A program made the position numbers and the translations under genes. Source: an uncultured Acidobacteriota bacterium (GTDB lineage Bacteria > Acidobacteriota > Thermoanaerobaculia > Multivoradales > UBA5704). From it: 64,000 nt of DNA. The notes under the pieces are model-generated. The model saw nothing but the letters and a program-made list of their open reading frames with translations, was not told where the DNA came from and made no database searches. Positions 7,444 to 10,145 of this stretch are shown in pieces. Where the stretch lies: positions 256,001 to 320,000 of the forward strand of contig CAVYRF010000001.1 in the NCBI GenBank assembly GCA_963770895.1, read 5' to 3'. Each line of letters begins with the position of its first letter. Within the stretch, counting starts at the first letter, position 1.

Positions 7444-8880
7444 ATGAGCGAGCCGATCGTTCTCGCCTTTTCGGGCGGGCTGGACACCTCTTTCTGCGTT
7501 CCATGGCTGGCGGAAACGCGGCGCCGGCCGGTGGTGACGGTGACGGTCGACACCGGCGGCCTGGACGCTGCCGCGGCGGCGGCCCTGGCCGAGCGCTCGC
7601 GCCTGCTGGGCGCCGTGGATCACCAGCTGATCGACGGCCGCGCCGCCTTCTTCGAGCGGGTGCTGCGGTTCCTCATCATGGGCAACATCCGCCGCGGCCA
7701 GGTGTACCCGCTGTGCGTCGGCGCCGAGCGCGTCATCCAGGCGCAGATGGTGGCGGAGGCGGCGCGCCGGCTGGGCTCGCGCAGCGTGGCGCACGGCTCG
7801 ACCGCCGCCGGCAACGACCAGGTGCGTTTCGAGGTCGCGTTGCGCACGCTGGCGCCCGAGCTGGAGATCGTGGCGCCGGTGCGCGACGAGCCGCGGCCGC
7901 GCGCGCAGCAGGTGGCCTACCTGGAGGAGCGCGGTCTGCCGGTGCCCGTCTTTGGCGCCGCCTATTCGATCAATCGCGGCCTGTGGGGGGTGACGATCGG
8001 CGGCCGCGAAACGCTCGACAGCCTGGAATCGATCCCCGAATCGGCCTGGGTGCTGACCCGCGGCGCCTTCGACGGCGCCGACGAAGGTCGCGGCGGCCGG
8101 CGGCCGCTGCCGCCGCGCTCCCTGCGCATCGGCTTTGCCGCCGGCGTGCCGGTCTCGGTGGACGGTGAGGAGCTGGCGCCGGTGGCGCTGATCGAGCGGG
8201 TGGAGGATGCCGCCCGCGTCTACGGCATCGGCCGCGGCATCCACCTGGGTGAAACGATCCTGGGGATCAAGGGCCGGGTGGCCTTCGAGGCGCCGGCGGC
8301 GGAGGTGCTGCTGACCGCCCATCGGGAGCTGGAAAAGCTCACCCTGACCGGCCGCCAGCTGCGCGTCAAGGAGACGGTGGCGGCGACCTACGGCGACCTG
8401 GTGCACGAGGGCCAGCACCTGGAGCCGGTCTGCCGCGACATCGAGGCGCTGCTGCTGTCGTCCCAGCAGCGCGTCACCGGCGAAGTGCGCCTGCTGCTGC
8501 GGCCGGGGCTGGCTTTCGTCGAGGGCGTGTCGTCGCCGGCTTCGCTTCTCCGCGCGTCGCGCGGCGTCTACGGCGAGGCGGCCGGAGAGTGGAGCGCCGC
8601 CGACGCGCGCGGCTTCTCGCGCATCGCGGCGCTGCCGTCGATGCTGCACACCCGCGCCGGAACCGCGACCGGAGCGGGAACCGGATCGGGCATCGGAATC
8701 GGGACCCAGACCGGAAGTGGCAGCGGCGCCGAAACTGGAACTGGACCAGGAATCAGGACCGAGGCCGGGGCCGAATCAGGAACCGGAACGGCGACAGCGA
8801 CCGGAACGGCGACAGGGACCGGAACCGGGGCGGTAACGGGGGCGGGCACCGGGGCCGTCGCCACGGAGGCCGCGTCATGA
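7444..8880 (+). CDS. argG: Argininosuccinate synthase with a ~70-aa Gly/Thr/Ala C-terminal tail
   Basis: [45 protein letters not shown]. Confidence 0.95.
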
Positions 8881-10145
8881 AGACGGTGCAGCTCGACAAG
8901 ATCGCGTCGGTGACGCGCAACTGCCAGCTCAAGCGCGAGGTGCGGGTCAGCGCCGAGATCCCTTGTGAAGAAGGGGTGGTCGTGGCGGTGCGCGTGCTGA
9001 CGGACAAGAGCACTTACAACCAGATGGAGCTGCCCAGCGGGCGCATGGCGCAGGTCAAGCGCGGCGACGTGGTGGCCGGGGCGCTGGGGCATCGCAACGC
9101 GCTTTTCGGCTACTCGGGTTACCTGCCGCGCCAGCTGGCGCCGGGCGACACCGTGCACCTGCTCAACCTGGGCGGCGTGCTGGGGATCTGCGACTCGGTG
9201 AACCCCGACCTGGGGCCGCCGTTCGCGTGCGAAGTGCTGGGCGCCGTCTTGCACTTCCCCTACCTGGGCGAGCGCATCGGCGTCGCCGCCCGCATCGGCG
9301 CCGGCACCTCGGCGGCGGAGCTGGACGCCGCGGCGCCGCTCGTGACCGGCACGCCGCCGGTGCCGGTGGTGGCGCTGGTGGGCTCGTGCATGAACTCCGG
9401 CAAGACGGCCGCCGCCTGCGCCCTGGTGCGGCACTTCAGCCACGGCGGCCTGACGGTCGACGCGCTCAAGGCGACCGGCGTGTCGCTGCGGCGCGACGTG
9501 CTGGCGATGGAAGACGCCGGCGCCCGCGCCACGGCGCTGTTCACCGACCTGGGGGTGGTGGCGACCACCCCCGCCAACGCCCCCGGCGTCACCCGCACGC
9601 TGATCACGCGCCTGGCCGCCGGGCGGCCCGACGTGATCGTCGCCGAGCTGGGCGACGGCCTGCTGGGTGCCTACGGCGTGGATGCGATCCTCACCGACAG
9701 CGCCCTGCGCGGCGCCTTTTCGGCGGTGGTGCTGGCCGCCAACGACCCGGTTGCCGCCTGGGGCGGCGTCCGCCTGCTGCAGGACCGCTTCGGCATCGTG
9801 CCGGCGGTGGTGACCGGCCCGGCCACCGACAATCTGGCCGGCACCCGCATCCTGGAAGCCAGCCTGCACATGCCGGCCGCCAACGCCCGCACCGACGGCG
9901 AGCGCCTGGCCCGGCTGGTGCGCCACGCCCTGGGCCTGGCCCCGGCCCCCGGCGCCGCCGAAGAGCCGTCGCCGCTGGCAGCGCCGCGCGCGACATGGGC
10001 GGGAGTGGGTGCCGGCGCGCCGGTGGGTCCCGCCACTCCCGCGACGCCCCCGTCGACCGCTGCTGGCGCTGAGGAGGACCGGGCAGATGCCGCGGGTGGT
10101 GCTTCAGCCGCTATGCCTGCCGTGCGCCAGGAGGTAGCAAGGTGA
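8877..10145 (+). CDS. DUF1611-like P-loop protein embedded in the arg operon
   Basis: ATGA overlap with argG stop and GTGA overlap with argC start; [19 protein letters not shown]-loop, [29 protein letters not shown]. Confidence 0.8.

Follow-up and report, generated by a model that had tools for sequence, protein, structure and literature searches.

Gene X, located between argG and argC in the arginine operon of an uncultured Acidobacteriota bacterium (Thermoanaerobaculia; Multivoradales; UBA5704), is likely to encode the first-step enzyme of the pathway, which N-acylates L-glutamate, and the product of this enzyme is probably N-succinyl-L-glutamate. The operon lies in a stretch of 64,000 nucleotides (nt), referred to below as the window, of contig CAVYRF010000001.1 (GCA_963770895.1), in a host genome of 8,164,432 bases distributed over 3 contigs with a completeness of 94.95%. 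Its gene order is argR-G-X-C-D-F'-B-E-H, with all genes on the + strand. Gene X corresponds to the open reading frame (ORF) at positions 8877-10145 (+), whose stop-free translation is 422 amino acids (aa) long. The prediction rests on a pathway gap, on the linkage of X to argC and on the mutual exclusion of X and ArgJ among genomes of the phylum.

A first-step role for this family has already been predicted in GapMind 2026 (bioRxiv 10.1101/2024.10.14.618325, dated 2026-07-02), to which the idea should be credited. According to the part of that preprint cited here, Steroidobacter denitrificans is without ArgA, and its hypothetical protein ACG33_RS14135 (A0A127FCT3) is 'virtually always' found within arg operons. 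In the same account, the likely orthologues of this protein never co-occur with those of Pseudomonas ArgA, and Foldseek gives a remote match to 7XRJ; the protein was entered as a predicted N-succinyl-L-glutamate synthase, without experiment. No other paper on the X family was found in a full-text literature search. Like ACG33_RS14135, X is located inside an arg cluster, without the usual first-step enzymes and with a linked ArgF' that carries Ala at the E92 position. We infer the tie between the two proteins through X homologues from metagenome-assembled genomes of Steroidobacteraceae, which share 57-67% identity with X and occupy the position between argG (or argR) and argC; S. denitrificans itself is absent among the 120 matches listed. 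The present operon differs in being acidobacterial (Thermoanaerobaculia) and in containing argE, and its X protein carries a disordered tail of 60 residues.

The pathway gap and the distribution of X

ArgB, ArgC, ArgD, ArgF', ArgE, ArgG and ArgH are all present in this 95%-complete genome, without ArgJ, a two-domain ArgA or a PRK07757-type GNAT protein. Neighbour genes were identified with NCBIfam and Pfam family scans, and these scans of the operon genes detected no GNAT domain in any arg neighbour protein. In the whole host genome, the ArgJ family PF01960 gave 0 matches, and the two-domain ArgA model TIGR01890 matched through its kinase half only (positions 2-281), on argB itself and below the cut-off. 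NF005840, which describes short ArgA-like GNAT proteins of the PRK07757 type, had 0 matches in the host genome, and its control was positive in 13 of 14 named genomes. PF04768 was also without a match in the host genome, but its control likewise matched nowhere, which makes this result uninformative. A previous reading made from the letters of the window (the sequence-only reading) had listed ArgR, G, C, D, F', B, E and H in this operon, without ArgA, ArgJ or a GNAT domain fused to ArgB, and the family scans and genome searches agree with this list. It had also pointed out that an argA, argJ or GNAT-type synthase elsewhere in the genome, if universal among carriers, would speak against a first-step role for X; neither ArgA, nor ArgJ, nor a short ArgA-like GNAT was found in the host genome.

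Related loci were collected by scanning one genome per species, which gave 315 confirmed relatives; the best 80 loci were kept, and their neighbours were identified by tblastn with the arg proteins of the window. In all 80 of these best loci, X immediately precedes argC on the same strand. argG is found upstream of X in 65 of them and argR in 66, the rest being shorter contigs or X-argC-argB clusters. Judged by their labels, the loci originate from Thermoanaerobaculia and other Acidobacteriota (62-88% identity to X) and from Steroidobacteraceae, Woeseiaceae and other Gammaproteobacteria (57-67% identity to X), and one record is labelled Planctomycetota. Of the loci long enough to cover argB through argH, 19/19 of the acidobacterial type contain argE, as compared to 0/31 of the gammaproteobacterial type.

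We also analyzed an even sample of the phylum, comprising 201 genomes each at least 90% complete, in which a genome was taken as an X carrier at E<1e-30. argC was detected in 119 genomes, X in 52 and ArgJ in 51; all 52 X genomes and all 51 ArgJ genomes have argC, and a strong X was found in none of the 82 genomes without argC. X and ArgJ never occur together (0/201 genomes). None of the 52 carriers has ArgJ and none has ArgA, the latter being present in a single genome of the sample, which also has ArgJ. When three unpublished genomes (the carriers G023 and G048, and the ArgJ genome G145) are removed, the figures become 50 X, 50 ArgJ and 0 with both, out of 198. As read from the coordinates, X adjoins argC in 50 of the 52 carriers, down to 33-36% identity; the two others belong to one genus and have X and argC on different contigs. 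A substitute for the acylating step would be expected to show such a pattern. The sequence-only reading had proposed to look for a conserved linkage of X orthologues to arg genes and for an anti-correlation with argA and argJ; the linkage to argC and the exclusion of ArgJ are seen in these data.

Sixteen argC-positive genomes of the phylum sample are without X, ArgJ and ArgA, and four of them were examined. G154, G004 and G010 have argC-like and argD-like genes, with a weak argB-like gene in addition in G004 and G010; their content suggests LysW-type sets (lysY/lysZ/lysJ-like), which we give as a candidate label. In the fourth genome, G171 (G171:C1:331000-350000), a Mla-like transporter cluster is located upstream of argC instead, and other sampled members of the same genus carry X. 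Immediately after a full argR-G-X-C-D-F'-B-E-H operon in G076 (C56:55000-74000, at 11434-15057), argC-like, argB-like and argD-like genes form another cluster, again a candidate LysW-type set. G052 contains only a 72-residue fragment of X, adjoining argC. The closest non-carriers (G005, G115, G127, G166 and G137) were checked for a replacement of X and are uninformative on this point, because they lack argC altogether.

Organization and putative regulation of the operon

The features of the operon, with their positions in the window, are the following:

6937-6950, + strand: ARG-box-like palindrome TGCAT-N4-ATGCA, putative ArgR operator (exact match, 34 nt before the argR start)
6984-7439, + strand: argR, arginine repressor, 151 aa (TIGR01529 E 5.1e-26, below the curated cut-off; Pfam Arg_repressor and Arg_repressor_C above cut-off)
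7444-8880, + strand: argG, argininosuccinate synthase (NCBIfam argG families E 1e-79 to 1e-86; Pfam)
8877-10145, + strand: gene X, predicted N-succinyl-L-glutamate synthase, 422 aa
8877-9266, + strand: N-terminal all-beta domain of X, residues 1 to ~130
9354-9941, + strand: P-loop domain of X, residues ~160-355 (Walker A residues 169-177 at nt 9381-9407, K198, E257 of ELGDG, D290)
9957-10142, + strand: Ala/Pro-rich C-terminal tail of X, residues ~361-422, lineage-specific, predicted to be disordered
10142-11599, + strand: argC (TIGR01850 251.4 bits, above cut-off; Pfam)
11831 (or 11690)-13111, + strand: argD, N-acylornithine aminotransferase (NCBIfam acetylornithine/succinylornithine transaminase families E 1e-95 to 1e-100; Pfam)
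13108-14187, + strand: argF', N-acylornithine carbamoyltransferase (NF003384 344 bits, above cut-off)
14184-15176, + strand: argB, N-acylglutamate kinase, 330 aa (Pfam AA_kinase only, no fused acetyltransferase domain)
15173-16417, + strand: argE, M20 deacylase (ArgE/DapE families; Peptidase_M20 and M20_dimer)
16422-17642, + strand: argH, argininosuccinate lyase, 406 aa (TIGR00838 304 bits, above cut-off)

The translational coupling of X on both sides, already noticed in the sequence-only reading, is readily seen in the coordinates. The ATG of X (8877-8879) and the TGA that ends the argG frame (8878-8880) share an ATGA, and the TGA of X (10143-10145) and the GTG at the start of the argC frame (10142-10144) share a GTGA. 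Shine-Dalgarno sequences are located 7 nt 5' of the X start (GGAGG) and 8 nt 5' of the argC GTG (AGGAGG). The latter site was used to assign the argC start because the first ~40 residues of ArgC are of low complexity.

The Ala/Pro tail of X (9957-10142) is one of several lineage-specific low-complexity extensions or inserts among the operon proteins. ArgG ends in a lineage-specific Gly/Thr-rich tail of ~70 residues (window 8659-8877). ArgC is 485 aa long for a model of 345 positions, with lineage-specific low-complexity stretches at 10142-10270 and inside argC, and ArgD has a possible N-terminal extension (11690-11830). ArgH is short, its 406 aa covering positions 9-388 of a 455-position model, with a C-terminal part that is seemingly missing or divergent.

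A perfect TGCAT-N4-ATGCA palindrome is located upstream of argR (6937-6950), in DNA that is otherwise 72% G+C. Taken alone this occurrence is not above chance, the mean expectation being 1.11 per window with at most 1 mismatch. At the same stringency, this palindrome occurs in the 250 nt that precede argR in half of the related loci (31/62), for an expected 0.012 per 261 nt, and it is often paired in these loci with a second box 21 nt downstream. We take the palindrome to match the ARG box consensus, and the paired copies would fit tandem ARG boxes. Its conservation 5' of argR lends support to the proposal, made in the sequence-only reading, that X may be under ArgR control.

Directly upstream of the ARG-box-like site and argR lies a tandem array (6438-6924) in which a 67-bp unit is repeated 7.2 times (94% matches). 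Elsewhere in the 8.16-Mb genome, this unit has a single partial match of 38 bases, on another contig (85% identity, E 9.3e-4).

Domains and relatives of protein X

Homologues of X are numerous: of 8000 scored candidates, more than 7000 proteins pass E<=0.001, and representative clusters number 1400 at this threshold and 188 at E<=1e-30; the ORF is far from a chance reading frame. Among the 120 matches listed, 'hypothetical protein' is the only name given, and precomputed Pfam domains are absent. Most members of the family are 340-375 residues long, and the C-terminal tail of X (~60 residues) is missing from most homologues, whose length is about 350-360 aa.

We aligned 50 full-length X homologues (alignment A1), in which G33, P84, G100, G175, K176, K198, G201, G215, A216, G226, E257, D290 and G314 are invariant. 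The first three are located in the N-terminal domain, where G55, G71 and R73 are at least 90% conserved. Four motifs had been quoted in the sequence-only reading and all are found in the translation of X: GSCMNSGKT (residues 169-177), KATG...D..AM.DAGA (from residue 198), FTDLG (222-226) and ELGDG (257-261). The first contains a Walker A motif, G-x4-GKT, with G175 and K176 invariant and T177 at least 90% conserved, and the glutamate of ELGDG (E257) is invariant. The AlphaFold2 model computed with A1 has a mean predicted local distance difference test (pLDDT) score of 88.3, with core blocks at 92-98. The modelled chain begins with an all-beta domain (1 to ~130), continues with an alpha/beta P-loop domain (~160-355) and ends in a disordered tail (370-422) whose residues have pLDDT values below 50. 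No relative of the N-terminal beta domain was found among solved structures. Scans against Pfam and NCBIfam returned for X only sub-threshold MobB P-loop matches and no family assignment. They revealed no GNAT match, the model being made of a beta domain and a P-loop domain, and the ArgJ domain PF01960 is not in X.

The sequence-only reading had assigned X to the DUF1611 type. PF07755 (DUF1611) has no match to X at E<=1, and none in its own genome at E<=0.01; weak PF07755 matches are given by 31 of the 50 family members (best E 1.3e-5), with MobB matching 32/50 and CbiA 31/50. As a comparison set, nine true DUF1611 proteins were taken from acidobacterial genomes. hhalign aligned the X family to these proteins with a probability of 90.6% (E 1.3e-6, 175 columns) through the C-terminal domains only, and the N-terminal domains of the two families do not align. 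When the A1 profile was run against PDB sequences, only P-loop segments of BioD, FtsY and MobB were retrieved (best E 3e-4), and no DUF1611/DgcN chain appeared even at E<=10. A language-model atlas returned the X family's own clusters, some of them auto-named 'DUF1611 domain-containing'. 'DUF1611-like' is right for the P-loop domain of X at the superfamily level and wrong as a family assignment: the remote homology of the C-terminal P-loop domain stands, and membership of the family does not, given the missing PF07755 match and the apparently different N-terminal domain. DgcN uses acetyl-CoA. X shares P-loop domain homology with the DUF1611/DgcN proteins (7XRJ, 2OBN, 2G0T), whereas its predicted substrate is the L-enantiomer and its predicted acyl group succinyl, as opposed to the N-acetylation of D-glutamate by DgcN.

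Foldseek, used with the full X model, ranks signal recognition particle (SRP) GTPases first and 2obn at rank 21, and 7xrj is absent among the matches listed. VIA-align gives another order for the same model, with the following Z scores:

2g0t (DUF1611): 17.3 (root-mean-square deviation 2.7, 179 aligned)
CTP synthase 4zdj: 17.2
2obn (DUF1611): 17.0
7xrj ('N-acetyltransferase DgcN'): 15.8
dethiobiotin synthetases: about 15-16

In eight genomes the only X homologues are distant ones (31-35% identity, with a fragment in one case). They form a paralogous branch, of which five loci were examined (e.g. L089 5902-7543, L090 5652-8513 and L093 5318-8138; 31-33% identity by tblastn), and four of the five genomes are without argC. 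A flavin reductase gene is located immediately downstream in 3/5 loci, and an M20 deacylase gene immediately upstream in 2/5. Two of the five paralogues pass the cut-off of PF07755 (DUF1611_C). This branch appears to bridge X to DUF1611, again beside deacylase-type genes.

A second lysine of the X family, K198, is invariant and located exactly 22 residues after the Walker lysine K176. Both HMMER (3fgn alignment) and hhalign place it in the column of the second, invariant Lys of BioD, whereas the nine DUF1611 proteins carry T-G-Q-T, without Lys, at this column. hhalign relates the X family to four BioD proteins with a probability of 65.7% (E 5.8e-5, 163 columns). The signature of dethiobiotin synthetase (DTBS) and CTP synthase, namely a Walker A motif, a second Lys ~22 residues later and the acidic residue of E-G-x-G, is present in X, with G175, K176, K198 and E257 invariant among the 50 aligned sequences. 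No DTBS-type family hidden Markov model (e.g. TIGR00347, AAA_26, CbiA) was reached, the only matches being sub-threshold ones to MobB, CbiA and AAA_26. The second Lys of DTBS and CTP synthase acts in phosphoryl transfer; in these enzymes and in cobyrinate amidases, an oxygen is phosphorylated and an amine then displaces the phosphate. X differs from BioD and from the synthetase domain of CTP synthase by its additional N-terminal beta domain, and different substrates are expected.

Known N-acetylglutamate synthases include synthase-kinase fusions. P0233, a metagenome protein of 626 aa found on 4 contigs, is likewise a natural fusion in which X is followed by an AA_kinase domain of the ArgB type; there the predicted synthase part is a P-loop protein, and the X of the window is unfused. 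In three other candidates, X is joined to pieces of ArgC (P0136, P0276) or to ArgG (P0250); these resemble read-through products of adjacent genes and were not counted. Co-folding of ArgB with X gave a score of 0.52 (runs 0.52, 0.50 and 0.53) for 0.00 with the best control, with a partner pLDDT of at least 90 and a contact agreement between runs of at least 53%. The band up to 0.60, in which this score falls, holds 7 of 80 solved complexes and both of the mismatched pairs that passed (2/110); the support from co-folding is weak. X would share its pathway slot with ArgA, with the short ArgA-like GNAT proteins and with BT3761, a Bacteroides GNAT which the cited part of PMC8121099 describes as a proposed N-succinylglutamate synthase in the arginine operon of a succinyl-type pathway. 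The fold of X, which is without a GNAT domain, is unrelated to theirs.

Candidate reactions of X and their implications

The best PDB match of the window ArgF' is 3l02, the E92A mutant of the Xanthomonas N-acetylornithine carbamoyltransferase, and Ala is aligned at the mutated column. Among the X-linked ArgF' proteins that cover this column (n=55), the residue is Ala in 51, Ser in 4 and Glu in none. According to the cited part of GapMind 2026 (10.1101/2024.10.14.618325), the changes E92A/P/S/V switch the enzyme to N-succinylornithine (Shi et al. 2007, as quoted there), and A, P, S or V is found at position 92 in 90% of 70 linked ArgF' proteins. Because ArgF' has Ala or Ser at the E92-equivalent position, the pathway most likely proceeds on succinylated intermediates, with succinyl, not acetyl, as the acyl group. 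The sequence-only reading had left the acyl group open and drawn an analogy with the acetylation carried out by DgcN; acylation is retained as the best reading, and acetyl is disfavoured since ArgF' has Ala at this position.

That X is an N-acylglutamate synthase filling the ArgA/ArgJ gap is the best-supported reading, in view of the absence of ArgA and ArgJ, the linkage to argC and the exclusion of ArgJ; what has to be dropped from the sequence-only reading is the membership of DUF1611, and the idea is already in print as a prediction. We rank first, tentatively, an acyl transfer from succinyl-CoA, because DgcN is the only characterised relative of the P-loop domain. X would transfer the succinyl group of succinyl-CoA to L-glutamate, and the resulting N-succinyl-L-glutamate would pass through ArgB, ArgC and ArgD to ArgF', a transcarbamylase of the succinylornithine type, with ArgE removing the acyl group after the ArgF' step. 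The P-loop domain would bind the donor by its nucleotide moiety, and glutamate would be recognised by the N-terminal beta domain, which is specific to this family. We infer in this way the reaction, the acyl donor and the split of labour between the two domains. The first-step role itself appears likely, since it comprises both this transfer and the ATP-dependent ligation considered below.

Several points weigh against this proposal. The searches of the 8-Mb genome for ArgA, ArgJ and NF005840 leave out other stand-alone GNAT subfamilies, for example that of Bacteroides BT3761. The phyletic counts overstate the support, because kinship makes the genomes non-independent. In G171, argC-D-F'-B is present and neither X nor ArgJ nor ArgA was found, so that another solution exists in the phylum. 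A transfer of function from DgcN is weak because X does not reach the DUF1611 Pfam model and seems to have an unrelated N-terminal domain. DUF1611 proteins, CTP synthase and dethiobiotin synthetase tie structurally within about 2 Z units, and Foldseek puts SRP GTPases first. K198 would favour phosphoryl-transfer over CoA-ester chemistry. P0233 is the only X-ArgB fusion among the 43 matches of a dedicated search. Finally, the literature on the X family yields a prediction only, with no experiment on any member.

The next candidate, somewhat unlikely in our view, is that X is an ATP-dependent succinate:L-glutamate ligase of the DTBS/CTP-synthase/cobyrinate-amidase type, which would produce N-succinylglutamate without coenzyme A. 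ATP would phosphorylate the succinate carboxylate, the alpha-amino group of glutamate would displace the phosphate, and ArgE would later free the succinate. The conserved Walker A motif together with invariant E257, the alignment of K198 with the BioD lysine and the lack of a Lys at this column in the nine true DUF1611 proteins are all in line with such a reaction. We know of no succinate-activating ligase of DTBS-type fold. The profile similarity to DUF1611 is stronger than that to BioD (90.6% as compared to 65.7%), although the BioD profile contains only 4 sequences. In addition, the only characterised relative on the DUF1611 branch is described as an acetyltransferase, in the PDB title of 7XRJ and in the cited part of the GapMind 2026 text.

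X could instead be an accessory or regulatory nucleoside triphosphatase, involved in the control of ArgB or ArgC, in metal insertion or in assembly, with the first step performed by an unrecognised acyltransferase encoded elsewhere. Among the SIMIBI-class P-loop proteins that match the X model well, many are targeting factors or chaperones with GTPase activity (SRP/FtsY, MeaB, HypB), the co-folding signal with ArgB, weak as it is, would suit such a partner, and the genome searches covered only ArgA-like GNAT subfamilies. However, the strict exclusion of ArgJ (0/52) is expected of a replacement of the acylating step and not of an accessory factor, and the best structural matches are enzymes of the DTBS, CTP synthase and DUF1611 branches, not G3E GTPases. 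X is also found both in loci with argE (19/19 of the acidobacterial type) and in loci without it (argE in 0/31 of the gammaproteobacterial type), and is therefore not an ArgE metallochaperone. We consider an accessory role improbable.

It is still less probable that X makes N-acetyl-L-glutamate, with acetylated intermediates as in Xanthomonas. ArgF' does score above the cut-off of the N-acetylornithine carbamoyltransferase family NF003384, and DgcN is an acetyltransferase according to its PDB title; the Ala of the window at the E92-equivalent position, the Ala or Ser found there in 55/55 linked ArgF' proteins, and the E92A mutant as best PDB match all argue against acetylated intermediates. 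To our knowledge, the P-loop fold is not a known amidohydrolase scaffold. That X replaces the deacylase, as an N-acylcitrulline or N-acylornithine hydrolase, is hardly credible: argE is missing from 31/31 argB-to-argH loci of the gammaproteobacterial type, and the cited part of the GapMind 2026 text reports the same gap in S. denitrificans, but the window and 19/19 loci of the acidobacterial type carry X together with an M20 ArgE, and X is no substitute for ArgE here because argE is in the same operon.

To the prediction of GapMind 2026 the present analysis adds an operon of this kind that includes argE, the mutual exclusion of X and ArgJ across genomes of the phylum, and the DTBS-type second lysine. 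If X makes N-succinylglutamate, as we propose, a large group of bacteria from soil and sediment would rely, for a core step of arginine synthesis, on a protein that is not related to any characterised N-acylglutamate synthase. As to the scale, 52 of the 119 argC-bearing acidobacterial genomes of the phylum sample carry X. A recurrent gap, read falsely as arginine auxotrophy, would be closed in the metabolic reconstructions of uncultured Acidobacteriota and Gammaproteobacteria, and a function would be given to a family of more than 7000 proteins, 'hypothetical protein' wherever named among the matches listed. Should X be a ligase, arginine synthesis in many Acidobacteriota, Steroidobacteraceae, Woeseiaceae and others would run on succinate that is attached with ATP and recycled by a deacylase, with no acyl-CoA.

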